Assembly (NCBI GenBank): GCA_951804945.1
Contig: OX638159.1
Span: forward strand, 62,806,001 to 62,870,000
DNA length: 64,000 bases
Reading direction: 5' to 3'
Source: Podarcis cretensis
Taxonomy: Eukaryota
The translations under genes were made by a program, and so were the position numbers. The notes under the pieces are model-generated. The model had not been told where the DNA came from and ran no database searches. It saw only the letters and a list, made by a program, of their open reading frames with translations. The stretch's first letter is position 1, and each line of letters begins with the position of its first letter. This document shows positions 7,777 to 64,000 of the stretch, piece by piece.

Positions 7777-10145
7777 TACTCAAAGGTATGCAGTACCGGC
7801 AGCTCTTTTTGTTGTTGTTGAAAAGCATGGCATTTACAGTAACAACTTCATGGTGAGTACGGCATCTATTTTTCTAGGGGGGAAAGCACTGGCATACAGC
7901 TCTGAAACCTAGCACCCTATTGGCATGGGAGTGTTTCGAAGCCAATCAGTGTAACTGCAGTTGGAGCGTATCTGCGCATAAGTGAATGCCATGGCTCCGA
8001 GGCAAGCAACGTGACATACAAAGAGCTGCTAAAAAAGCAGAGAGATCCAAACCCTACAGATGAATGTGCAAGAGGTGTTTGGGGAGCCATTTCCTTTGTG
8101 ACAGCCCCCATGCAGAACCCTCGACTTCCTTGCAAAATGCAAGAAAATGAAAGTGTCACGTTCCACCATCAGAAAGACAAACTGACTCGCAATTCCAGGA
8201 AGTTGCCCCCTTTTCAAAAAGCCTTGTAGACCTCTGACAAGTTGCTCATCAAGGCAGCCGGTGCATTGCTCTTGAGATGATCAACATGCTGTTGATGTCG
8301 AACCAAACTCAACTCAGAGGCAAAGCCTTCCATTTCCTATGTTAAGGTTCTAATCCATAAACCTTCATCATAACCTGCATTTTTAAATAATAATAATAAA
8401 AAATCCCAACCTGAATGGAGAGATAATGATACACAATATGAAGACAGCCAATCAGCTGGCTACCCCCCTCCCCAACAATATTCCAACAATCAGCCCCAGC
8501 TGCAGGCCAATTAAACTCAACAGTTCACAGGTGTTCATAGAAATGACTAACACAAAAGAAAGTCTTACTTCAAAAATGTTATATTTAAAAGCTTCGAGGT
8601 GGAACCAAGAAAGATAAAAGCCAGAATTAAGTTTATTGCCACCCAGTGCTTCACTCTGAAGCAGGTTTCAAGCAAGGCCTCCCCCTGGTATTAAAAGTTT
8701 GATGAACATCTGCATTTAAAATATAGGAAATTGGAACACGTGAAGGGTTTTTGAAAAATGCTGGTTGCAGTATCAGATCAGCTCCATAGACATTCACTTA
8801 TTTTTATAGGTGTGTGGCAATATACAAAAATATATTTGCAAAGTGGGCAAAAGATGGCATGATCTAAGTCAACGCTGCATGTTAGATTGCTGGCAGTGGC
8901 ACTTCTGTAAATATTGTTGGTGCTCATTCCCCAACCATAATTCTCATTTCCCAAAATAACAATTTCTTTAAATTTTAATGAGAACAAAACCATACCAGGA
9001 TCACATGGCACACTCTTCAATTCTTATTAAAAAAAGCGAGATGGGGGGAAAGGGGGATGAACATGGGCCCTTTGACAACTCTCAAGGTCCTCTTAAGCCC
9101 TCAGTTGACAGAAATTCTCCAGCAAATGAATTCTCATCTCCTCTCTCTGTAGACTAGCAAACAAAAGTATCTGTAAAAACGAATCTCTTTGCGGTCCTAT
9201 AGCAGAATATGTATACAAATTAACATCCAAATGTCTTTAATTCCCATGATGTGTCTATTAAGCAGCAATTCTCCAAAAGGCTGTTTAGCTATCCAAACAG
9301 CAGCCTAAAATTATCATCTTTATAAGCTCCCCATAACTTATTGCTCAGCTCCTATGAAAAGTCATTAATATTGGACTCTCTCTAGCTTAGTCTCACAGGA
9401 GATATTCTGCAAAGGGATGCAATAAAACTGCGATTTCTGCCATCATTTCATTAAAAATCCTTGTTAAATTTCTAGCTGAACAGTGTACATAATATGAAAA
9501 AATATTCAGGGTGCTTATTAACTATGCTGCTCCTTATGATATGAACTTTTAAAAGAATAATGAAGACTATTTCTAACCTGTAAGAATATTGTTCATTTTC
9601 ATTGCTATTAAATTTTAATCGGGGCATTGTTTAAAAATGTTTAAGTTTCATTACATTTCAGTGTCTCCTGGAATGAAAGAAAGGCAATGAATTCACCAGC
9701 CACAACGCTTGTCACTCATCCATCTCCCCTGCTGACATCTCAATATTATGGGCATTCTGTGTTCGTGGGGCTCAACTTCCCATATGTACCAGATTACATT
9801 TTTCCTGGTTTATGCTTGCATAAACGTTTGAGTAATTTGGACCAGAAAAGAAATGGAGCCAGAGAATACTACTCTTCCCCACTAGAAATCCAAAAACGTT
9901 TATCACATGTAGAGGGGATATCTATGGGGAAGGGAGGGTGGTATATTCTACAGGCTTGTGATATTAAGACCAACCTATATTACAATCCTCTGTGGAAATA
10001 TATGCAGTTCACAGGACATGTAGCGTTGACTGTAAGGAAACAGACACTCTTCAGCATAAGAAATACACTGGGTCTGAGAGTGAAAATATAGGAATAATTT
10101 GTGAGGTGTTTCGGAGGATTTTTAACACTTGCTGAGGTTTTGAAG

Positions 10146-10281
10146 CAGGCGTAGGCAAACTCGGCCCTCCAGATGTTTTGAGACTACAATTCCCATCATC
10201 CCTGACCACTGGTCCTGTTAGCTAGGGATGATGGGAGTTGTAGTCCCAAAACATCTGGAGGGCCGAGTTTGCCTATGCCTG
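10146..10281. mobile_element. Palindromic non-autonomous hAT MITE
   Basis: Long inverted repeat CAGGCGTAGGCAAACTCGGCCCTCCAGATGTTTTG...; 8-bp TSD ttttgaag/tttttaag. Confidence 0.88.
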
Positions 10282-10446
10282 TTTTTAAGGGTTGTATGTG
10301 TGTGTGATGCACCTTATGATATGAACATATGTGTGCACATATCTGTATATATACACACATACACACGTATATGTACACATTTATCTAGCATGCATGCCAA
10401 CATGTGTGGACATGAGGAATATGATGGGGTAAATGAATTTTAAGTA

Positions 10447-10688
10447 CAGTGGTACCTCGGGTTAAGTACTTAATTCGTTCCAGAGATCCATTCTTAACCT
10501 GAAACTGTTCTTAACCTGAAGCACCACTTTAGCTAATGGGGCCTCCTGCTGCCGCCGCGCCGCCTCTGCACGATTTCTGTTCTCATCCTGAAGCAAAGTT
10601 CTTAACCTGAAGCACTATTTCTGGGTTAGCGGAGTGTGTAACCTTAAGCATATGTAACCTAAAGCATATGTAACCCGAGGTACCACTG
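10447..10688 (+). mobile_element. pogo/Tigger-like MITE family B, copy 1
   Basis: TA TSD; TIR CAGTGGTACCTCGGGTTA...TAACCCGAGGTACCACTG; inverted copy at 59897-60138. Confidence 0.9.
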
Positions 10689-10882
10689 TAACAGCAACAT
10701 TCTCTCTCCCCCATTGTACATAATTAAGAATAAGCACTCCCCTTTCAAACGAGGTGCAAAAGTGGAAATAAGAATAAAAGAATTCCTGCAACAACTGCAT
10801 AGATCCAAATGGTGGACTGGATATTCCTTGTACTTGTACAAATGGCACTGACCAAGAGAAATGGGATGGGACATTCCTGAGG

Positions 10883-14625: not shown

Positions 14626-14974
14626 TCAGATGATTGGAATAGGTGACTGGACGTGTTCCTTCTCATTCTAAAAGAGATTGAAACTGAAGAACCCACTGCT
14701 AAGGGATTACAAGCAGCACAGCGTCCAATTTCCTTTCCTAATGGAGTCCAGAAAAGAAATACACCCTGGGATTTGCTCTCTCATCTACAATTGCATCAAT
14801 TATCTTCAAAATGATTCAGGTTTCTGAGGACAGTTCTCTGTACGCCCATCTCCTTTTACCAGCCATTTATTCCCTTCTCCCTTCAGTGGGTGCTGCCAGC
14901 ACATGCTCAGCACCAATGCATAGGGCTAAAACAGGTTCTCCTTTCATTCCTCCATGAGCTGGTGCTTTGTAAAC

Positions 14975-15578
14975 AGAAAGCAAGGAACACTCTGGGCTGC
15001 ATCAATAGGAGTATAGCATCTAGATCAAGGGAAGTAATAGTGCCACTGTATTCTGCTCTGGTCAGACGTCACCTGGAGTACTGTGTCCAGTTCTGGGCAC
15101 CACAGTTCAAGAAGGACACTGACAAACTGGAACGTGTCCAGAGGAGGGCAACCAAAATGGTCAAAGGCCTGGAAACGATGCCTTATGAGGAACGGCTAAG
15201 GGAGTTGGGCATGTTTGGCCTGGAGAAGAGGAGGTTAAGGGGTGATATGATAGCCATGTTCAAATATATAAAAGGATGTCACATAGAGGAGGGAGAAAGG
15301 TTGTTTTCTACTGCTCCAGAGAAGCGGACACGGAGCAATGGATCCAAACTACAAGAAAGAAGATTCCACCTAAACATTAGGAAGAACTTCCTGACAGTAA
15401 GAGCTGTTCGACAGTGGAATTTGCTGCCAAGGAGTGTGGTGGAGTCTCCTTCTTTGGAGGTCTTTAAGCAGAGGCTTGACAACCATATGTCAGGAGTGCT
15501 CTGATGGTGTTTCCTGCTTGGCAGGGGGTTGAACTCGAAGGCCCTTGTGGTCTCTTCCAACTCTATGATTCTATGATT
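14975..15578 (+). mobile_element. Young 5'-truncated CR1 LINE (ORF2 C-terminus plus 3'UTR)
   Basis: Open frame [42 protein letters not shown]...[13 protein letters not shown]; tail CTATGATTCTATGATTC. Confidence 0.96.
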
Positions 15579-16268
15579 CAACCAGCCTCTGAGTTGTCCT
15601 TAAAGTGTAAGAATTTCCATTTCAGTCTCTTCCTAATGACACATCTGAGTACAGAATCTACAATGTTAGTCTCTATTTTCAAACCTGTAGGAATTTGCCT
15701 AACACTTAAACGTTGCAGAGCAATCAAGTCTGATAGCAGCAGGCTAAATATCAGTTTCTGAAAATAAATTTTATACGAATGTATTCTCCAGACAATTTGA
15801 CTTTTAAATGTTTAAAAGTGACATCTTTATGCAAGCGAACACTGGCTGAGGCAATAGCTACAAAACCTGGACATTTCCCCCGCATCCTTGTGCTTTTCAT
15901 AATAACCTGTTAAAAGCACAGCTGGCTGCAATGCAGCCTTTTACTGTTTTCCCTTGGAATAATTTACTGCTCTTCTGACCTATAAACAGATAGCCATTAC
16001 TGTGACTTAGCACCACAAAACATTCTGGACACATGCTCGGAGGTGATGCGTGCTTTTAAATATTGCATGTGTGAAAGCTTTTATAACCAGGTCTTTGTGA
16101 AATGGAAACATTACATTTCCTTAAGCAATGTTGCATACCTTTAAGCACCAAGCAGAAACAGTCTTCTTGTCCCAGGCTTTGACCAAGTAAACCAGCTATT
16201 GCCTTTTAAACTTTTTTAAGGGGGTGTATTGTTTTTGTTTGTTACTATGATATGTATTTTTGTCTGGT

Positions 16269-16300
16269 ATAATAGTAATAGTAATAATAATAATAATAAT
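16269..16300. repeat. (TAA/TAG)n microsatellite
   Basis: taatagtaatagtaataataataataataat. Confidence 0.9.
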
Positions 16301-16590
16301 TTTGAGCAGGTGATTTGTTGCTGCAAGGTTTCCATGCTTGTCTTTCCCCTTGAACGAAGAGCCACCCATTTTTGGCTTTTATGAGGGTTGATTAAACTTA
16401 GAATCTCAGTGCTTGATGTTTTCGTTGATCTCACTGGCTGACCTATTTTTCAACCAAACCCTACTCAAAAAAGCAAAACAAATAACATGCAGTGAGGTTT
16501 CTGCTTCATCCATTGTCGTTACCGTGGGACTGTGGTAATGGGAACCACCTGTCTGTTATGTGGTTCATTGCGCCCATCTACCCTTTAAAA

Positions 16591-16728
16591 CAGCTTTTCT
16601 CAACCTGTGAGTCCCCAGATGTTGTTGAACTACAACTCCCATCAGCCCTAGCTAGCAAGGCCAGAGCTCAGGGACGATGGGAGTTGTAGTCCAACAACAT
16701 CTGGGGACCCACAGGTTGAGAACCGCTG
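16591..16728. mobile_element. Palindromic non-autonomous hAT MITE
   Basis: TIR CAGCTTTTCTCAACCTGTG...CACAGGTTGAGAACCGCTG; perfect 8-bp TSD CTTTAAAA. Confidence 0.92.
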
Positions 16729-17019
16729 CTTTAAAAGCTTATTGAGAGGCCTGGATATAATTGAATTATGTGTCGCAGAAGCCAAGTTTTCTCAGAGAAG
16801 TTACGTGCAAATAAAAAATAAATGAATAGAGGACGTGCCCTCCTCCAATCCAAACTGGGACTGTTGCAGGGAGAGGTGGCCTTAACCTTTGTCCTCCCCG
16901 TCTTCATCCTAATGGCGCCACGCTGCCTCCTTTTTGTATTTGGTCCCCTATCTCGCTGAACTTGGGAAGGTAGAAATGGCATGTAGAGTAGACTTCTCGG
17001 GCGGCTGTTTATTAAGTTC

Positions 17020-17436
17020 ATAGAATCATAGAGTTGGAAGAGACCACAAGGGCCATCGAGTCCAACCCCCTGCCAAGCAGGAAACACCATCAGAGCACTC
17101 CTGACATATGGTTGTCAAGCCTCTGCTTAAAGACCTTTGGTTGGAATTAGCAGAAATCTGCCTTCTGGATTCTGTGCTGATTCTTAGGAGGACTTTTGAT
17201 TTATTGCCCCATCTCTTAAAAACTTCCTGGTGTCCATCCCAAATAACTCAAAGCAGCAGTTTTATTCCTTAGATGAGGAAAGCTATGTGCCTCCATTTTC
17301 CTTATGGCAACCATTCATGTATCTTATGACTTATGGTTCCTCCTTCTTTTTCTTCATGCTGAACAAGTTCTAAGCAAGCCACTAATAGCTTTGGTTGCTT
17401 TTTCATTTGCTGTCTCATCTGACTGTCAAAAACACT
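17020..17436 (-). repeat. Inverted near-identical copy of 62315-62731 (CR1 tail plus about 300 bp of unique intronic sequence)
   Basis: By eye it matches the reverse complement of 62315-62731 over 417 bp with one mismatch (ttattgcccc vs ttatggcccc). Confidence 0.95.
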
Positions 17437-18706
17437 GAAACTGCCTTGGTCGCACTGGTTGATGATCTCCGGTGGGCTAAGGACAAAGGTGAGAGCTGTT
17501 TCCTAGTTCTGCTGGATCTCTCAGCGGCGTTTGATACCATCGACCATGACATCCTTCTGGACCGTCTTGAGGGGCTGGGAGCTGGGGGCACTGTCATACA
17601 GTGGTTCCGCTCCTTCCTCCTGGGCCATGTTCAGAAAGTGGTGGGGGGGGATGAGTGTTCAGACCCCTGGGCTCTCACTTGTGGGGTGCCTCAGGGTTCT
17701 GTCCTCTCCCCCATGCTTTTCAACATCTACATGCAGCCGCTGGGAGAGATCATCAGGGGGTTTGGGCTGGGTTTTCATCAGTATGCGGATGATACCCAGC
17801 TCTACCTCTCTTTCAAATCAGAACCAGTGACGGTCCTGTGTGAGTGTCTGGAGGCGGTTGGAGGATGGATGGCGGCTAACAGATTGAGACTGAATCCTGA
17901 CAAGACAGAAGTACTGTTTCTGGGGGACAGGAGGCGGGCAGGTGTGGAGGATTCCCTGGTCCTGAATGGGGTAACTGTGCCCCTGAAGGACCAGGTGCGC
18001 AGCCTGGGAGTCATTTTGGACTCACAGCTGTCCATGGAGGCACAGGTTAAATCCGTGTCCAGGGCAGCTGTGTACCAGCTCCATCTGGTACGTAGGCTGA
18101 GACCCTATCTGCTCGCAGACTGCCTCGCCAGAGTGGTGCATGCTCTGGTTATCTCCCGCTTGGACTACTGCAATGTGCTCTACATGTGGCTACCTTTGGA
18201 GGTGACCCGGAAACTACAACTAATCCAGAACGCAGCAGCCAGACTGGTGACTGGGAGCAGCCACCGAGACCATATAACACCGGTCTTGAAAAACCTACAT
18301 TGGCTCCCAGTACGTTTCCGAGCACAATTCAAAGTGTTGGTGCTGACCTTTAAAGCCCTAAACGGCCTCGGTCCAGTATACCTGAAGGAGCGTCTCCACC
18401 CCCATCGATCTACCCGGACACTGAGGTCCAGCACTGAGGGCCTTCTGGCAGTTCCCTCACTGCGAGAAGCCAAGTTACAGGGAACCAGGCAGAGGGCCTT
18501 CTCGATAGTGGCGCCCTCCCTGTGGAACACCCTCCCACCAGGTGTCAAAGAGAACAACAACTACCAGACTTTTTGAAGACATCTGAAGGCAGCCCTGTTT
18601 AGGGAAGCTTTTAATGTTTGATGTATCACAGTATTTTAATATTCTTTTGGAAGCTGCCCAGAGTGGCTGGGGAAACCCAGCCAGATGGGTGGGGTATAAA
18701 TAATAA

Positions 18707-18756
<50 letters not shown>
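17433..18756 (+). mobile_element. Young 5'-truncated L2 LINE (RT domain to 3' end) with (TTA)n tail
   Basis: ORF 17395-18576 carries L2 RT motifs TETAL..LLDLSAAFDTIDH..GVPQGSVLSP..YADDTQLY..SRLDYCN..LHWLPV; long (TTA)n tail at about 18706-18756. Confidence 0.96.
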
Positions 18757-19460
18757 CTAAATCAGGAGAGTCTGCAAGACCTGGACAAGTGCTTGGGACT
18801 GGTGGTGGGTTGGCAAGATGAAGGCACTGTGGGAGGTGGTTCCTAAGTCTGGGACATTGGTCAATTGCCGGCTTTGGATGGGGTCGTGAAAGAGGAGATT
18901 CAGAGTCTGAAAGTGCTCCTGGATCTATCTCTGTCACTAGAGGCCCAGGAGACCTTAGTGGATTGGTGTGCCTTCTACCAGCTTCATCTGCTAAAACAAC
19001 TGCAGCCATTTCTTGCCTAGGATAGTCTGGTCACTGTAGCCCATGTACTGGTAACCTCCAGGCAGGATTACTGCAACGTGCTCTATGTGGGGCTGCTGCT
19101 GAGGTTGGCCCAGAAGCTGGTACAAAATGTGGCAGCTCAACACTGGGACAGAATATCGCCAATGCGTTACTCCACTGTTGAAAGAACTACAGTGGCTGCC
19201 AATGAGCTACTGGGCTAAATTCAAGCCACAAAAATTCCTACACAGCTTGGGGCCAGGATACCTGAAAGACCATGTCACCTCTTATGCATCCAGTTGGTCA
19301 CTGTGCTCTGCAGGCGAGGGCTTCCTGCAGATACCGTCTTATCAAGAGGTCTGTTCCACACAATGTGGAACGTTGGGCATTTAGTGTTATGCCACCTTCC
19401 CTTTTGAATTCCCTTCCCTTGAAGATCAGACAGGCACCATCTCTATTGGCGTACTGAAGA
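18757..19460 (+). mobile_element. Older degenerate L2 LINE fragment directly 3' of the young L2
   Basis: Degenerate L2 motifs: ggattactgcaacgtgctctatgtggggctg (DYCNVLYVGL) and LLKELQWLPMSYWAKFK. Confidence 0.8.
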
Positions 19461-20470
19461 CCTTCTTCATTCTATTGAACTTTCTCAGTCTGAATTGGTA
19501 CTGGAAATATTGAAAAGACTTTCAAAAGAAAGATTTTTCCAGGGTAATTAGTGTGACTTGCTTACTTCCAAGGACAGAGCGTTCAAGTGGCAGAAAGACT
19601 GCCAATGGCCGGGATCTGATTTACACGCAGAGAGATCCAAGACCCTGCCATATTTGGAACTGGGATCAGTTGGCAATCCCCTGGTATACTTCCCCTTCCC
19701 TGGGTCTGCGTGCCAGAGAACTATTTGCAGGTGGCTAATGGTAAAGGATAACCAGACTGCCTTATCCTATTTATGTCAAGAATATGTGTCATGCTGTGGA
19801 CAGCAAGACAAATCAGGGTCTAATTAGCTCAGTCAATTCCTTCAGTATTATCCTTTCAGTCTACATTGAGTTATTAAAGCCATGGAAATACAACACTACC
19901 GAGACAGCAATGATGGAAGTAAGATGTCAGAAGCTTATTAACTGGAGTTTGAGGATGCAGCTGCAAAACAGACAAACTATGATAAATACAAATTGGCTAA
20001 ATGGTAATCCATACCGTTGCCTTACGTTTTTTAAGCATACTTACAAACAAGCTCTGTTGCCTCATATACCACTGGTCAAGAGTGGGTTAGCGGCTACTTA
20101 AATAGCAGGCAGTATGGTGGGAGCTTCAAGTATGAACAAGGAGTCTTGATGCAAAAAACAACAACAAACCACTATTCAACAACAGCCTCTATTCACAAGT
20201 GAAACCAACTTAACATGTATCACTGCTTTTACTTGCATTTATCCCTTGGTAACTTTGCCTTCGTTCCTCTCCTATTGCCTAATGTAGACTCTGTTCTTTG
20301 CGACACAGGCCTATCTTTTGTTTTGCTGCAATCAGCATGTATACTGACACAATATTTATAAGAAGAAAGATAATAACTTATTTAAAGAAGGACAGTGTCA
20401 CAGAAAATTTAAAGGCTATTCTGTTATGGATTTTATGTACTGTATATGGGGAAAACCCAACAACACTTGA

Positions 20471-20471
<1 letters not shown>

Positions 20472-20502
<31 letters not shown>
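20472..20502. repeat. (CA)n microsatellite
   Basis: Perfect AC run. Confidence 0.97.
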
Positions 20503-21931: not shown

Positions 21932-22636
21932 CAGGCGCCCCCAAACTTGGCCCTCCTGATGTTTTGGGACTACAATTCCCATCATACGACATATGATATC
22001 TTTATTGTCACTATCCCATACAGAACAATGAAACTGAAAATCTACATAAAACATTCAAAAACCCCTAAAAACTCTGAAACCGCATTTTTAAATACAATAT
22101 ACTATAGAGACTCCTTATGCTGCGTTTAGAACCAGAATTGCATTTGCGTAGAAACTGTTTCTCAGGCGGCTAGTCCTGGTCTTTATAACCCTATACCTTC
22201 TTCCAGAAGGCAGAAGCTGAAAGAGATCATTTCCGGGGTGCGTACCATCTTGCGCTATCTCTGCAGCTTTCTTATGGCACCTGACAGCATAGATTTGATC
22301 TAAGGTGGGAAGAGTGTACCCAATTATTCTCTCCGCAGTCTTTACAACCCTGGACAGCGTTGTTTTTTCCCTGGCCGTGCAGCTCCCAAACCACACGCAC
22401 AGACCAGAAGTTAATACACTCTCCACAGTACAATGGTAAAATGCCATCAACAGGTCCTTTGAGAGATTGTTTTTCCGGAGGATTCTCAGAAAATATAACC
22501 TCTGCTGTGCTCTCTTCATCAGGCCTTTGCTGTTTTCTCCCCAGGTTAGGTCATCCCTGACCACTGGTCCTGTTAGCTAGGGATGATGGGAGTTGTAGTC
22601 CCAAAATAGCTGGAGGGCCAAGTTTGGCCATGCCTG
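21932..22636. mobile_element. Palindromic hAT MITE (same family as 10146-10281) interrupted by a Rex1 LINE
   Basis: Left half 21932-21985 and right half 22553-22636 rejoin into the MITE; TSD ttacagac/ttccagac. Confidence 0.85.
21990..22552 (-). mobile_element. Rex1/Babar LINE 3' fragment
   Basis: ORF 22115-22564 with AQQRLYFLR..FY...ESVLT....WFG...HP...F.LLPSGRRYR...RT.RL.NSFY, the Rex1/Babar C-terminal signature. Confidence 0.9.
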
Positions 22637-25600
22637 TTCCAGACAATACTGAGCTAGATGAGTTAGTGGTCTAACTCAGCAAAAGGCAGCCTCCTATGTT
22701 CCTGGGGCAGCTTGTTTTCTTCGAGCTCTGGCCTTTGCACCCCTATAGAGTCCCATGGAGAAAGGCTCCTCCTAAGCCTCTAGCCAACTCCTGCATCCTT
22801 CAAGAGTACTAGTCCAGGATTCAAAAATAAACCTACTACATCTTGGAGAGTGCAGAACTGCTCCACTAGCTTTTCCTCTTTCCACTTCAGCCACAAACAA
22901 TTGCCAACAAACCCAAAAGACAAGGGATTTGCAGATGTAGTGAACATTAAAAGTAAGAAACCAAAGTGCCGCCAGCTGTACTCACAAACAAACGGATTAA
23001 TGTGAAAAAGGGGTGGCCTGGCAAATAATTTTGCCCTTCCTGCCACGGGAGAGGTTCAAAACAGCCCCCGTGCAGAGGTTCATTCGGCAATGGAGCAAAG
23101 AAGCACAGGTCCTCTAAGTTGCAAAGCATTTCCACAATTTCTCGCCAAAATAAATTGGATTCTTTCCACTGTTTGAGATGGCAGCGAAGCAAGGACTGTA
23201 TAATTAGGTCAGAGCTGATTACCTAGAACAAGGGCAATTTTCTTTACATCCAAGTAAAGCTTCATGAAAAGCAGCAAAGAAAGTGCATTTGGGAGTAGCT
23301 GAGAGACTGTCTAAAATCTTTCTTGATGAAAGCGATTTAACTACATTTTAATATAGATGGTATTTTCTATTAATGTCAGGGCAGAAACTTATTGCTCCAC
23401 ATATCTCATCACAAGGGCTATCTCTGCATCTGTCTGAGTCAACTTCAGTGACCACTTCAATATTCACTTTACAATTAATGCTGCTTTTTTATGGCTCGCT
23501 AGAAAGTAAACCAATTTCAGCCCAGCTCCTCAGTATTGAATTTATTATAAAAAGTTATGTACTTAAAACTCCTATAATGAAACCAGAGGCATCATGAGAT
23601 ATTAACCTAGAGTTAATGCTGAGAAAGCCGGTTTGAATAATTCAATTCATGTCACCTTAAGTATCTTTTCAAATGGAATTAACTTTATCTCACACACAAA
23701 AAAGGAAGCGCCACGTTCCAGCTACTGATTATTGACTCCACGAGGGCTCCGTCTTAAATCATCACGGCACCATTTTCCCCAGTAAGTTTGTGGGGCTCTT
23801 GCCAAGACAGATGCTCAGAATGGAACGCCAGGCTGTCAGCCGAGGGCCGCCTGGACTCCACCCTCCGAGAAAAGGTTCTTCCGCATCCCAGAGACGAACC
23901 AGTGGAGCTGAACCAAGAGCTCGCTGGATTCACAGTTTGGACGGGATGCAGGGTTCCTGCAAAGTTTTTTCTCAATGTCAGTGCCTCTAACAATATCAGG
24001 CACTGTTTTCATCATCGTTCAGATGGCTTTAAAAGAAGAATTTGACATTCATGGATCCATTAAGGATGGCAACATGGTACTGAGCTATTAGATGAATCTG
24101 CGCCATGAAAACCCAGCTGGCCACAAGCCTTGTGTCCCTGGCAGACCAGAGTGGTGTGTAGTCACAGAAAAGAAAGTTTTTGGGGAAATAACAGCACCAA
24201 GAACAGGATGAGAAAGCAGACAATTCTGGTTACAAAGAAGAATCATATCCAGAAACTGCAGAAATATATCACTGTAGATTATACTGAGCTAAAGGAATAA
24301 CGCCGCTTCCTATGTTCATATGCCACAGAAACCTAGTGCGCTCTGTGTTCGTTTATTCTCTCTTAGAACTGAGATTATCCACTGCATTTGGAAGTTGGGC
24401 GAATGTGGAAGAAGGAAGGAATTGGACAGTGTCGCAAATCTGGGAAGAGATGTCGAACCAGGACTGATAGCAGCATCTACCTTTTCAAAGTCTGCCATTC
24501 GCCAAAGTATTGCAGAAGGTCTCAGCTGTATTCTTCAGTGTTAAAAGGCCACCAGTCCACTCCTTCATGGATCCAATGAAATCAGGTCGTAAAGCAATAC
24601 CAGTGAGACAAACACCCCCAAGGTACCACAGCACTTGCAGTCTTTGCTGCTGCAAAGAACATGGGTTGATTCACACATGCATGTCCCTGAGGTCCTAAGA
24701 TTACTGTGCTTCTGAAACAACAGAGAAAACCCTTGCACGAGACTCTGAAGCACCACAGAGCCTTTTGAAACTGAAATTCTGACTTGGGTACAGTCGATGC
24801 TCCAAAAGCTTTAGCAACATGACTTGTTTTATTCAGGGAAACAACTACCGCAAGAGTAAGACCATACACTTTTGACTAAACTCACCTTATGCCATTCTTC
24901 TCCCAAAGTGGGGGGGGGGGGCGGCATTTAAAAGTATATTTTTATATGATGTTCACATCACAGTAAATCTCCTCTGTATGCCTCCATAAAGCTGTTGGAG
25001 AACAAAGACTAAGACCCTTGCCTGAAGTGACACCCAAATTGCAGAACTTCCGTTCTGGATGTAGGCACCTGACATTTTTTACTATCTTTTAGGCACCATG
25101 CAAAGTCTGTCCCATGTTTAATGGCAGGTGTAACTGCCCCCTGGCTGGTTCCACCTCCAGTCTTGGGAATGGTGCTCCCCAAACTCCAAGAGCTGTTGGG
25201 GGCTCCTGCTGGCTCCAGACTACAGCTCACATAGAGGACGTACTAGGCTTTCCCGCAGCAGCTGTTTTATCTTAAAAAGCAGGTAGGGCAGCAAGCATCC
25301 AACAGAAAGAGAGCTGGGATGGAGGGGTGTTGGTTCTTGTAGAAAAGGTCCTTCCCATTCACTGCAGCGCTGCAGTGGTGAGAAGGAGGAGGACAACGAA
25401 AGAGAGCCCTGAAGCCCAGCTGCCTTTTGAGGAGAGGAGAAGGACAGCCAACAGAGTATCAGAAGGGCAAACAGTCCAGCCAGGTCTTTCAAGAAGGATG
25501 TGACAATAAAACTGATGGAGACTATCTGTCAGGAGGCTTAGAAGGAATATCTGGGTAGGTTCATTCCAGGGAGAATGGGGTTCCTCCCTCCTTCATTGCT

Positions 25601-26288: not shown

Positions 26289-26550
<262 letters not shown>

Positions 26551-30544: not shown

Positions 30545-31819
30545 CTCCTGCACGGCTCCCCACGCTGCGGATGTCTGTCCGGCGCGCGGGGCGCTCTGGT
30601 TCAGGGAGCCCCGCCTGCCGGGCGGCAGGCTGCAGACACCTGCGCGAAGCACGGGGCGTCCTCCGGAGGGTGCCCCATGCTGCCGGCTGCCGCCCGCAAG
30701 CCGTGCACGCCGGGGGGGAGTTCCCCCCGGGCGCGCAAGGCTTGCGGACACCTGCGCGAAGCACGGGGCGTCCTCCAAAGGGCGCCCCGTGCTCCGCGCT
30801 GCCGGCTGCCGCCCGCAAGCCCTGCGCGCTGGAGGGAGTACCCCCGGACACGCAAGGCTTGCGGATAGCTTCCTGGAGCCTGGAGAGCCTCCAAAGGGCG
30901 CCCCGTGCTCCGCGGTGCCGGCTGCCGCCCGCAAACCCTGCACGCCGGAGGGAGTATCCCCGGGCGCACAAGGCTTGCGGACACCTGCGCGAAGCACGGG
31001 GCGTCCTCCGGAGGGCGCCCCGTGTTCCGCGCTGCCGGCAGCCTTCCGCAAGCCGTGCACGCCGGGGGGAGTACCCCCGGGCGCGCAAGGCTTGCAGACA
31101 CCTGCGCGAAGCACGGGGTGTCCTCCGGAGGGCGCCCCGTGCTCCGCGCTGCCGGCTGCCGCCCGCAAGCCGGGCGCACCTGGGGGGAGTTTCCCCGGAC
31201 ACGCAAGGCTTGCGGATAGCTTCCTGGAGCCTGGAGAGCCTCCAAAGGGCGCCCCGTGCTCCGCGCTGCCGGCTGCCGCCCGCAAACCCTGCACGGCGGA
31301 GGGAGTACCCCCGGGCGCGCAAGGCTTGCGGACACCTGCGCGAAGCACGGGGCGTCCTCCGGAGGGCGCCCCGTGCTCCGCGCTGCCGGCTGCCGCCCGC
31401 AAGCCCTGCGCACTGGAGGGAGTACCCCCGGGTGCGCAAGGCTTGCGGACACCTGCGCGAAGCACGGGGCGTCCTCCGGAGGGCGCCCCGTGCTCCCGGC
31501 TGCCGCCCGCAAGCCCTGTGCGCCGGAGGGAGTACCCCCGGGCGCGCAAGGCTTGCGGACACCTGCGCGAAGCATGGGGCATCCTCCGGAGGGCGCCCCG
31601 TGCTCAGCGCTGCCGGCTGCGCCTGGGGGGAGTTCCCCCGGGAACGCAAGGCTTGCGGATAGCTTCCTGGAGCCTGGAGAGCGAGAGGCATCGGTGCGCA
31701 CCGACGCCTCTCACTCTCCAGGCTTCAGCGAAAGCCTGCATTCGCCCCATAGGACGCACACACATTTCCCTTTCATTTTTGGAGGGGGAAAAGTGCGTCC
31801 TATAGGGCGAAAAATACAG
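30545..31819. mobile_element. Non-autonomous Tc1/mariner (Tc2/pogo-like) element, left end missing, carrying a GC-rich minisatellite
   Basis: Right terminus ...GTGCGTCCTATAGGGCGAAAAATACAG|TA with subterminal hairpin TTCGCCCCATAGGACGCAC...GTGCGTCCTATAGGGCGAA; no left TIR found. Confidence 0.7.
30626..31680. repeat. GC/CpG-rich minisatellite, ~117-bp unit, about 9.5 copies, two unit variants
   Basis: CAAGGCTTGC anchor at 30736, 30853, 30969, 31086, 31204, 31320, 31437, 31547 and 31647. Confidence 0.95.
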
Positions 31820-59300: not shown

Positions 59301-59896
59301 CCCACCCGACTCCTCGAGTGCTCGTAAAATGCAGTCAATGTTGAGGGGAGACAGAACGGTTTTCTTTGTCTCTGTGATGGTTCTCCCCCCCCCCCCGAAA
59401 ACCCCCCAGAAACATGGGGGTGTCTCTCCCTTTACAGAAAGCAAAAGCAGCAAAGCCCTTTATAGGCCTTCCACAAAAGCCTGAAATCAAGGCAGCGGAG
59501 TTCTGTGCTCACGTCATATAGGAATCAGTGGGCTGGGCAGAGGGCAACCATAAACACTACTAATGAGAGACAAATACCTGGACTTTTGGGGAAGCATGCA
59601 CAGGACTGGGTGTGTAGGTCAGCAAGCTCTCAACCGGGACATTCATAGTTAAAAAAAAAAAAACATCTGGCTCTACCATTAGTTCACTGGGCAAGCAGCC
59701 ACCTTGCCTATCTGCACTGTAGGGTTGATAATACTGACCCTCCTTACAGGACTACAATGAAGAATTCTTGAAAATGTAGATGAAGCTACTTTAAATACAG
59801 ACAAGGACCTAGCACACAAGAAGGGAAAAAACCCACAGCACAGTGGTAGGGTAATGGCTTTTTGTATGCAGAAGGTACTTGGTTCATTCCCTAGTA

Positions 59897-60138
59897 CAGT
59901 GGTACCTCAAGTTACATACGCTTCAGGTTACATACGCTTCAGGTTACATACTCCGCTAACCCAGAAATAGTGCTTCAGGTTAAGAACTTTGCATCAGGTT
60001 GAGAACAGAAATTGTGCTCCGGTGGCGTGGCGGCAGCAGGAGGCCCCATTAGCTAAAGTGATGCTTCAGGTTAAGAACAGTTTCAGGTTAAGTACGGACC
60101 TCTGGAATGAATTAAGTACTTAACCCGAGGTACCACTG
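59897..60138 (-). mobile_element. pogo/Tigger-like MITE family B, copy 2 (inverted), inserted in a tRNA-derived SINE
   Basis: TIRs CAGTGGTACCTC...GAGGTACCACTG with TA TSD; the flanks gtatgcagaaggtacttggttcattcc / tctgcaggtagggcagggaaagg..gaaaccctggagagctg rejoin as a SINE. Confidence 0.9.
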
Positions 60139-62614
60139 TATCTGCAGGTAGGGCAGGGAAAGGCCCCTCCTTTCCGAAACCCTGGAGAGCTGACCACGAG
60201 ATTCAAAAGTAAAATACTTCTGAAGGCCACATTTCTGGACCCCAATCAGTCTCACTCTTCTTCTTTTGGATATTCATTAGAGTAAGAGGAATTCTAGTTA
60301 TTGCCATTCCATTCTTTTGTCTTTGCTGACAAACCTTTAACATGCTCTCATTTCTTGTACGTTAGCACCGCTGCTTCAAGTAGACACTGCAATATATATT
60401 TTTCAGGCACTAACCTGCAACAAACTGTTGCCCAGGTCCAACAGAAAGAGCTCCCCTCACTCTTCTATGCCAAATAAAAGTTTTCTCACTGACAGCTCAC
60501 CATCCATTTAGAAAGAAATCTGTCTAAATTCAGTTTAACGCATCTCCACTAGGCAATAACCAGCCAGGATGTTATGCCTTGTCTGAATGAAAGATTTCTT
60601 TAAAACATCACAGCCTATAGACTCAAACAGATGTTTAAACTGAAGTGGAATAAGATCCTGCTTCAAACGACAAGATTTGATTTTCTGGATTCCCTTCGGT
60701 TATGCGAAGAATCAGCGTCCAGTACATAAACCTACTTACAGAAAATATCTTACTGCTCCAGAGAGAGATTAAAGCTGGTGCTGGGAGGGCGGGGGGAATC
60801 CAGGAAATCAAAAGACAAAAGCTAGGGAGAACATCTGTACCAATATTCATAAAATCATGTTAGACGGGTTAATACAACAGAGGCATCTGGAGAATTTATG
60901 GACCTAAACACGATTAAGAAAAAGAGAAGAACAAACTCAGAATACCTGCTGGGCCTATGAGAAGGAGAAGGGAATTGTCTTTATATTTATTGAGGTGTAG
61001 GGCTAACGTACAAAAATATGAGAGCCTAATGTGGTTTCCAATAGCAATGTCAGTGGGAAAAATGTCTTTGTAAGATAGAAAGTGGAAAAGATTTAAAAGG
61101 AAACAAGCTGCTGCCGACAGCATCTTGTCTAAAGTGGAATGGGAATGAGCTTTCCTTCCCACCTCTCAGGCCAAAATGCATTGCTCCAACCACACAGTCA
61201 AGACCACAGAATGCTGCTCCCAAATCCTGAAGGATGTGCATGCCTCCTCTCGACTCTCTTTTGTTCCAGTGCACAAAGGGAACCGGCATAAGGAATTCAC
61301 ATGTATATAATATCTAGAATTCGAGAGAAGTCAGTCCTTCAACAGCAGGGCTGAGGAGAAGAGTCTAAGCCCAGGTTTTACAACATACTCCTTTTAAAAA
61401 TGAAATATGGTTTGCTGTGATAGCTTAATTAAACTGGTAAGCAATTGCCTGAGTTGGCTGCAGGTTTCGACTAACCCTGGTTTGGTGTGATGTCTAAACA
61501 AACAAGCCAATGTCATGCTCTGCATCCAGAGGTTGCTGCATCGCAGATATAGGAAGTAAGCTAACAAGTGCGCTGAGATGATGGAAATCCAACCCAGGCA
61601 GACTGGAAACTGGAATAAGATTAAATTAATTGAAATATCACTCAAGCTAAAGGAGCGAAAATGAAATTAACATTATGAAAAACAGGGGATTCAGTATCGG
61701 GTTGACATTTTGTATTCTTGCTGAAAAGTTCTGATTTATTTTTAAAGGCTAGGGGCACTGATTACTAGTGGTGGTGGGGTACCAAGCAAGAGACCATGAG
61801 CTGGGAACAAAGGGGAGATATTAAGTGCCTTGTGCCATGAGATTTAGTGCCCTGAGCCATCATTTTCTGAATCCTTTCCCAAAATCAGGGCTCCTCTGGT
61901 GATTTATTTTTTTTCCCTCCGCAACTATGGCAGCTAGAATGTTGCTCAGCTGTTTAAAACAAAACAAAAAAGGCCTTGCTTACTTCCATGGGACTTACCA
62001 TAAGATCACAACAATAGTGTTGAGACAATGCCGAAAGTAGGTTATAGACAAAAATCTACATAAACAGAGTTAAGTTTTAGTTGACAATGTCCTCCTAGCT
62101 ACTTAACTGTGTTCTCTGCTACAACCGATAGTGGAGATCCCTCCCAATGTGAGAACACTGAACTTGATGATATACTATCCTGAATAGGTCCTGGCACAAT
62201 GCAGGGTGGAAAGTCTCCAAGGAACAGCATCCACCGAGGTGAAATGCATCACAGCATCTGTAAGAATATCTGCTACATCCTTCTTCCACAATGAGAGGCT
62301 CGTTCTTCCAGGGAAGTGTTTTTGACAGTCAGATGAGACAGCAAATGAAAAAGCAACCAAAGCTATTAGTGGCTTGCTTAGAACTTGTTCAGCATGAAGA
62401 AAAAGAAGGAGGAACCATAAGTCATAAGATACATGAATGGTTGCCATAAGGAAAATGGAGGCACATAGCTTTCCTCATCTAAGGAATAAAACTGCTGCTT
62501 TGAGTTATTTGGGATGGACACCAGGAAGTTTTTAAGAGATGGGGCCATAAATCAAAAGTCCTCCTAAGAATCAGCACAGAATCCAGAAGGCAGATTTCTG
62601 CTAATTCCAACCAA

Positions 62615-62770
62615 AGGTCTTTAAGCAGAGGCTTGACAACCATATGTCAGGAGTGCTCTGATGGTGTTTCCTGCTTGGCAGGGGGTTGGACTCGATGGCC
62701 CTTGTGGTCTCTTCCAACTCTATGATTCTATTCTATTCTATTCTATTCTATTCTATTCTATGATTCTATT
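62615..62770 (+). mobile_element. Short CR1 3' insertion with expanded (ATTCT)n tail and TSD
   Basis: Same young CR1 3'UTR as at 15460-15578; flanked by tttctgctaattccaaccaaa / tttctgcaaattccaaccaaa. Confidence 0.9.
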
Positions 62771-64000
62771 CAAAGCTTTTCTGCAAATTCCAACCAAACT
62801 GCTAATTCCAATTGCATCACTTACGTATATTATAGGATCCTTACCTGAAAAAAAGTCCAAATAGTACCAGCATCTAATTCACATTTTACATTCAGGCTTT
62901 GGAGATGAAAGGAGCTCCCCAGAGTTTGGGTAAGGTTGCTGAGGAATACTGCAGCTCCTTTGTTCCACTAGGTTTTCCCTAGAGTTCCCTGGCACCTTCA
63001 AAATCATGTATAGGGGGCATTTGCTTAGCTCTGTCTGAGCTGTAATTAAAACTGCAACTTAAACTAAATGGACAAATAGTTAACACTCTAAGAAAAGGGA
63101 GTTAACAGCAATTCCAAAGAGTTTTAAACAAATTACAATTTGCTTTTTTAAAAACTAGCTTTTCGGAAATATTTGTATCGCTTGGGACAAAGTCTGAAAA
63201 GTTATGTGACATATCAAGTTTCTTTGATAGGAGAGACTAATAACCCAAGCAAAGTTACATAATATAAAAATGGAAATAAAATTTAATATCTATAATTTCA
63301 TGTTTATGTATGCTTGTCCAGATCACAAAAAAGTGATAGCAAAACCTAAATCAATATGACCTGCAAAGCTGGGATATTAACCAATGAAATGTCTATTTTC
63401 AGACTGGTCCCAGGGAAATTATTACAACTAGTTACAGAAATTAAAGATGTGTGAAGGTGCCTTCTGATAAGCTCAGGATTATTGCCATAAAATATATTTG
63501 CAGAATATAAATTATTGTATGTTCTCAGGTGTTCCAATGAGATATTCTAAGGAGGCTTCTTTCAAAACATTTAACACTTATTCCGTCGCTTTTGAGGCAA
63601 TAATGTTAGGGTTGTCAGCTTTATTGACAGACATCAAAAAGCTAAGGAGAATTAAACATGTAAGACTTAATCCTGTATCACTGCTTCAATGTAGAACAAA
63701 ACTGCAAAAATGAACATTTGAAGAGCTGCAGAGCACATACTGTATCTTTTACAGCATTTTATCTTAAAGATGAATATAATAAACGAGTTATTTCGGGGAC
63801 TGAGACGGATGTTCTCCAGCCAACTTTTTTTTTCTTCTTTTTTTCAGAAGAAAAGGGTTTGCAGGTGGCAGAAACATTTCCCATATCAACACCCCCCCCC
63901 AAAAAAAGCTTGCCATTTTTATACAGGTTTGCTGCTGTTCACAGCCCCACTTGACTACAGCTTCTGTATGAAAAATAGCCCTGCTTCTTAGTAACAGTGA

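Follow-up and report, generated by a model that had tools for sequence, protein, structure and literature searches.

The locus raises the question of how intron sequence from a site 45 kb away came to stand, inverted, against the 5' end of an L2 LINE. The window, that is, the whole stretch of 64,000 nucleotides of Podarcis cretensis that was analysed (contig OX638159.1, positions 62,806,001 to 62,870,000, forward strand), was compared with itself by blastn. Positions 17020-17436 were identical to the reverse complement of 62315-62731 at 416 of 417 letters (E 0.0, no gaps), which confirms the inverted copy with one mismatch that the initial annotation had recognized by eye. The match sits between two retroelement remnants within an intron of KIAA1328 (PF15369), of which four exons were matched, all on the minus strand and in order. 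Its non-repeat part had been described as unique sequence of about 300 bp that does not belong to a transposable element. In a search of the 1.51-Gb genome this part matched two places, the recipient and the donor (a lack of further matches is not proof of rarity), and a multi-copy element, considered as its origin, was thus not supported. Coordinates are given in Table 1.

Table 1. Features of the recipient locus, the donor locus and the gene between them, in window coordinates.
Positions	Strand	Feature	Basis or remark
17018..17136	-	Young CR1 3' end (117-119 bp) with (ATTCTATG)n tail	0 differences to donor CR1 over 117 bp
17137..17436	-	Copied unique KIAA1328 intron sequence, 300 bp	Inverted, from 62315-62614; self-comparison and genome search
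17434..17436	+	3-bp microhomology ACT, copy joined to L2	L2 family copies compared
17437..18756	+	5'-truncated L2 LINE, RT domain to 3' UTR and TTA tail	96% like best family copies
18757..19443	+	Old L2, ~70% like relatives	Begins mid-element directly at younger L2 tail
26391..26531	-	KIAA1328 coding exon	Between recipient and donor; normal order and strand
62315..62614	+	Donor unique intron sequence	Joined to its own flank in contigs of all five organisms
62615..62770	+	Donor CR1 3' end with microsatellite-like tail	Inverted relative to recipient CR1

The 62-kb locus was identified as the source, in agreement with the earlier proposal, because the donor CR1 end carries the duplication CAAAG on both sides (62612-62616 and 62771-62775). 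A polarity with 62315..62614 as donor and 17137..17436 as recipient is supported. The single mismatch between copy and donor was located at 17205, where the copy has T and the donor, on the same strand, has G. Public contigs of five organisms were then compared with the locus in seven of 24 public runs, assigned to organisms A (X1, X2 and X4), B (X5), C (X7), D (X8) and E (X10). G was found in the donor of the window and in that of organism A (X1, X2 and X4); the donor contigs of organisms B, C, D and E carry the T of the copy, and the mismatch therefore arose on the donor side. Judged from these letters, the copy did not arise by reading this donor haplotype a second time. The tail of the donor CR1 (62732-62770) has grown into an (ATTCT)n microsatellite, and the recipient CR1 and the CR1 at 15.5 kb keep the 8-letter unit.

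Read along the L2, the copy corresponds to the sense strand of the KIAA1328 pre-mRNA, as first noted, because the KIAA1328 exons lie on the minus strand. The foreign part is thus in sense with the L2 as judged from the strand of the gene, transcription being predicted from the gene model; by gene order, transcription reaches the donor intron earlier than the recipient intron. The copy event was intronic and single, with no predicted effect on KIAA1328.

The first 117 letters of the copy are a young CR1 3' end that is also present at 15458-15576. The recipient CR1 (17020-17136, minus strand) and the donor CR1 (62615-62731, plus strand) lie in opposite orientation with 0 differences, and the recipient tail stays in CR1 register for 2 letters beyond the end of the donor match. 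Because both ends are identical and inverted, the left junction may lie anywhere within the 117 bp. No letter is diagnostic between the recipient and donor CR1, and the 117 bp are assignable to neither locus; CR1 family letters were taken from window copies and the loose ends of contigs only.

Contigs of the left flank stopped 22 letters inside the CR1 tail, at 17041 in X1, X2, X5 and X7 and at 17042 in X4 (22-23 letters). The left-flank contig of X8 (organism D) ended at 17033, where gap count and end distance imply 8 extra letters. By arithmetic (the letters themselves were not displayed), these make up one more tail unit and give again 22 tail letters. Contigs with the CR1-tail junction were observed in four organisms, and both CR1 sites were seen in contigs of organisms A-D. 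In organism E, the left contig (X10) matched to 17021 and then continued with 979 other letters without a match on the window, and the donor contig continued 190 letters beyond the CR1 site; organism E therefore carries neither the recipient nor the donor CR1. The donor contig of organism D, of which 317 of 495 letters lie in the duplicated part, had a depth of 12.6 versus 10.8-13.7 for four flank contigs; one copy would raise the expected value to 17.0 and two copies to 20.4. This comparison, which comes from one run and from contig depth as a rough measure that is not a copy number, suggests that organism D lacks the copy.

The recipient CR1 was probably not imported with the copy, because relatives including organism D carry the CR1 tail at this site and the depth in D suggests that no copy is present there. 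These observations suggest that the tail at 17020 stems from a CR1 insertion of its own, made locally and before the copy, a point that had initially been overlooked. The 417-bp copy originally proposed holds for the 300 bp that are demonstrably copied; the remainder belongs to what appears to be this separate, older insertion. The left junction is probably one of CR1-to-CR1 homology over 117 bp, and not the blunt end of a patch. A further young CR1 3' fragment (14971-15580, 610 bp, plus strand) lies 1.4 kb to the left of the recipient CR1 and inverted to it; this fragment, 98% alike over 119 bp, is the nearer inverted partner, yet not the one used.

The right junction was examined against L2 family copies that span the same point. 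Upstream of the junction, 40 of these 41 copies read GGGACT and one reads GGGATT. The window reads AACACT, so that the overlap is ACT, 3 bp, and not CACT as had been proposed. The start of the old L2 corresponds to position 666 of 1417 in a profile built from 14 relatives. Its upstream part is missing, as reported in the initial annotation, since the element starts mid-element (18757-18758); the upstream part of neither L2 was found elsewhere in the window. Most likely, the younger L2 inserted into the old L2, and the sequence upstream of it was lost with that insertion or afterwards. A loss of target DNA at the site is supported.

No target-site duplication (TSD) was found around the composite; the longest word common to both ends has 5 letters and lies in the TTA tail, not at the junction. 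The copy likewise has no TSD and no poly(A), and its junctions show microhomology and microdeletion. The absence of a TSD, initially taken as a sign of repair, stands as an observation, but it counts for little as evidence, given that L2 TSDs are only 1-9 bp long in the available excerpt of PMC4476161. The right-flank contigs of X1, X2 and X5 (organism B) stopped 33-36 letters to the left of 18766, as expected with the TTA tail. By contigs, a repeat to the left of 18757 is also present in organism B and in a second haplotype of organism A.

The ages of the younger L2 and the copy were compared through their non-CpG divergence, as the initial annotation had suggested. Against 77 distinct family copies (from 80 loci after removal of duplicates), private non-CpG changes were counted at 8 of 1184 sites of the L2. 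One of nine changes at first regarded as private was common to 13 other loci, which reduced the count from 9 to 8, and the private letter pair 18187+18199 was found once in the genome. A divergence of 36/1188 non-CpG sites, measured against the youngest subfamily, was rejected as inflated by subfamily letters; the value fell to 9 and then to 8. Copy and donor differ at 1 of 417 letters, where equal age predicts 5.6 differences (Poisson P 0.024; conditional binomial P 0.061; P 0.08-0.14 with only 6 private L2 changes). On these counts the L2 probably predates the copy, though not with certainty. The age of the copy is only loosely bounded, because no derived change was counted in it over 327 bp against the letters common to the outgroups. 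The L2 family is very young: 18 of the copies compared at all 1184 sites were without any private non-CpG change, so that the family is probably still active.

The 417-bp inverted match is best explained as a DNA-repair scar that was seeded by the CR1 pair and rejoined in the probably older L2, a reading considered fairly probable. A break or stalled fork would have occurred at the CR1 remnant already present at 17.0 kb, and the broken end would have paired with, or invaded, the identical inverted CR1 45 kb away. Synthesis would then have passed through the donor CR1 and 300 bp into its flank, before the strand was released and annealed at the 3-bp ACT inside an existing, likely older L2. The rejoining would have removed anything that was left of the local CR1, the DNA in between and the 5' part of the old L2, and perhaps that of the younger L2 as well. 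The events would have followed in the order of old L2, then younger L2 and both CR1s, then copy. The left end lies in 117 bp of perfect homology and the right end in 3 bp, which gives the signature of two template switches. The template would have been DNA, used in synthesis-dependent or break-induced repair with two template switches, a distinction from an RNA template that the sequence itself does not make. Later repair had already been preferred to an L2 template switch at the outset, and the apparently greater age of the L2 and the missing target DNA both favour that preference.

A single L2 event is regarded as unlikely. Reverse transcriptase primed at 18756 would have reverse-transcribed 1.3 kb of L2 RNA, changed template at ACT to nascent KIAA1328 pre-mRNA, copied the 300 bp and the antisense donor CR1, and closed the cDNA on the local CR1; annealing to this pre-existing CR1 would have deleted the DNA between. 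Both junctions and the deletion are explained equally well in this way, and the pre-mRNA sense of the copy relative to the L2 and the earlier transcription of the donor intron are in keeping with it, but agreement in strand has 1-in-2 odds by chance. In L1 cell-culture work, cDNA is said to pair with an endogenous element. Template switching of L2 to other RNAs (PMC4476161) and retrotransposon insertion with target deletion (PMC4229983) are both described in the excerpts available of these reports. The ages argue against a single event (8/1184 for the L2 versus 1/417 for copy and donor, P 0.02-0.06), as may the presence of a repeat left of 18757 in organism B and in a second haplotype of A, which may or may not carry the copy. 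Formulated as an RNA-templated local copy-and-delete, with an L2 enzyme acting together with the homology of CR1, a different LINE clade, the explanation is likewise doubtful. Reverse transcriptase of CR1 might instead have mobilised an antisense transcript (300 bp of flank and the donor CR1 end) and integrated this transcript at 17020 with the tail outward, the L2 side being joined by microhomology then or later. The copy does end exactly in the canonical CR1 tail, with an overlap of about 4 letters with the target (organism E matches to 17021). This course of events is nevertheless judged very unlikely, given that organism D has the tail there but, by depth, not the copy, that a transcript antisense to KIAA1328 is required, and that no target duplication is present.

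An assembly artefact, in which a chimeric read or a misjoin put donor sequence beside the L2, is very improbable. Neither the junction of copy and L2 nor the T/G pair at 17205 was seen in the contigs of the seven runs (X1, X2, X4, X5, X7, X8 and X10), not even in X1, which has the exact letters of the window on both flanks and whose 2519-bp donor contig runs unbranched through 17436. Either the contigs prune such joints or X1 is without the copy. Contig assembly of this type prunes low-depth links into high-copy repeats, and pruning is also suggested by the lack of locus-specific L2 contig pieces in all seven runs, X1 included. Contigs show presence, not absence, and the missing junction was not used as proof of absence in organisms A, B and C. 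An artefact is opposed by the T of the copy at 17205, which is the letter of four other organisms and not that of the donor in the window, X1, X2 and X4, and by the position of the right junction on a 3-bp overlap with L2 family sequence. A contig of X4 that lies wholly within the duplicated part had a depth of 209.9 versus 75.4 for the left flank (2.8 times), which is compatible with an extra copy, a comparison limited by the mostly unduplicated donor contig of X1 and X2, also at 1.6-1.9 times the depth of the flanks. The same test is uninformative in X1 and X2, as it is in X5 and X7, where the expected rise is only 5-10%. The contiguity of the assembly (51 contigs for 1.51 Gb) also speaks against a misjoin. 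Inversions with staggered breaks typically leave inverted duplicates that lie tens of kb apart. A breakpoint duplication of a 45-kb inversion is nevertheless extremely unlikely here: the normal order and strand of the intervening exon refute a full inversion, and the donor is continuous with its own flank in relatives.

In all three runs of organism A, the depth of the recipient contigs (16000-20500) was 0.4-0.6 times that of the donor contig (60122-62641), and in organisms B, C, D and E the two depths were about equal. The lower depth in A points to strong heterozygosity around the recipient, or to haplotypes that differ there in structure.

The proposed repair scar seeded by the CR1 pair was compared with known systems, for which the cited reports were available as excerpts. 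Transposable element-mediated rearrangements (TEMR; Alu/Alu and L1/L1), as described in the excerpts of PMC9675761 and PMC12350158, likewise have a junction inside two homologous repeats, yield inverted products from repeats in opposite orientation and, where breakpoints are more complex, are read as replication-based repair. The present case differs in its CR1 ends of 117 bp, in having only one junction in the repeat pair, and in a 300-bp inverted insertion with deletion in place of a simple deletion or inversion. The excerpt of PMC12350158 lists 277 inverted duplications with a median of 284 bp, mostly with microhomology. In DUP-TRP/INV-DUP rearrangements, the first switch falls between inverted repeats separated by less than 100 kb, and the second junction has 1-9 bp of microhomology (14 of 24 samples in the excerpt of PMC11293582), an arrangement like that found here. 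Those rearrangements are kb-to-Mb copy gains with an inverted triplication, whereas synthesis here ended after 300 bp, and the return point here lies downstream, so that DNA was lost and a short inverted segment gained.

Class 2 templated sequence insertion polymorphisms, in the part of PMC5110952 at hand, are patches of 73-414 bp at a break that resemble the copy in size, in the absence of a TSD, in microdeletion and in microhomology. They have distant donors without chromosome preference and end-joining on both sides; by contrast, the donor here belongs to the same gene, at a distance of 45 kb, and the left junction lies in 117 bp of CR1 homology. Chimeras with foreign sequence in sense at the 5' side of a truncated LINE, as in the present case, are known for U6/L2 and mRNA/L1 (excerpts of PMC4476161 and bioRxiv 10.1101/2025.02.02.635956). 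The former occur in platypus and Anolis (PMC4476161, excerpt), so that the initial statement that such chimeras are documented mainly for mammalian L1 was too strong. TSDs of 1-9 bp were present in 72.5% of 40 U6-L2 chimeras (PMC4476161, excerpt) and are also described for mRNA-L1 chimeras (bioRxiv 10.1101/2025.02.02.635956, excerpt); insertion-associated deletions are known for SVA (PMC4229983, excerpt). As excerpted, U6/L2 and mRNA/L1 chimeras are single insertions with TSDs that involve abundant RNAs or exons. Here, in contrast, no TSD was found, the foreign part is local intron sequence, target DNA is missing, and the copy looks younger than the L2. A partial literature search did not turn up a published local case of the intron-L2 or CR1-CR1 type. 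Overall, the locus looks like a real repair scar, a known kind of rearrangement whose mechanism is better defined than first proposed.

If the reading as repair between the CR1 ends is true, CR1 ends of only about 117 bp, of which this genome contains very large numbers, can initiate ectopic repair across 45 kb in the manner of human Alu pairs, and the locus would add a small but useful observation on structural variation outside mammals. The combination of a LINE with foreign 5' sequence would then be no proof of a reverse-transcriptase switch. If a single L2 event had instead taken place, the locus would preserve an in vivo trace of nascent host RNA being copied by L2 where it inserted.

A second inverted pair in the window (10445-10690 and 59895-60140, 246 bp, 91.9% identical) is not collinear with the 417-bp pair; donor contigs end inside it, and it is thus probably a dispersed repeat. 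A minisatellite-like tandem array of about 1.1 kb lies at 30591-31682, with copies about 83-87% alike. Short MITE-like elements with inverted repeats were found at 10135-10283, 16615-16711, 21942-21985 and 22551-22638, and are of very high copy number by contig depth.
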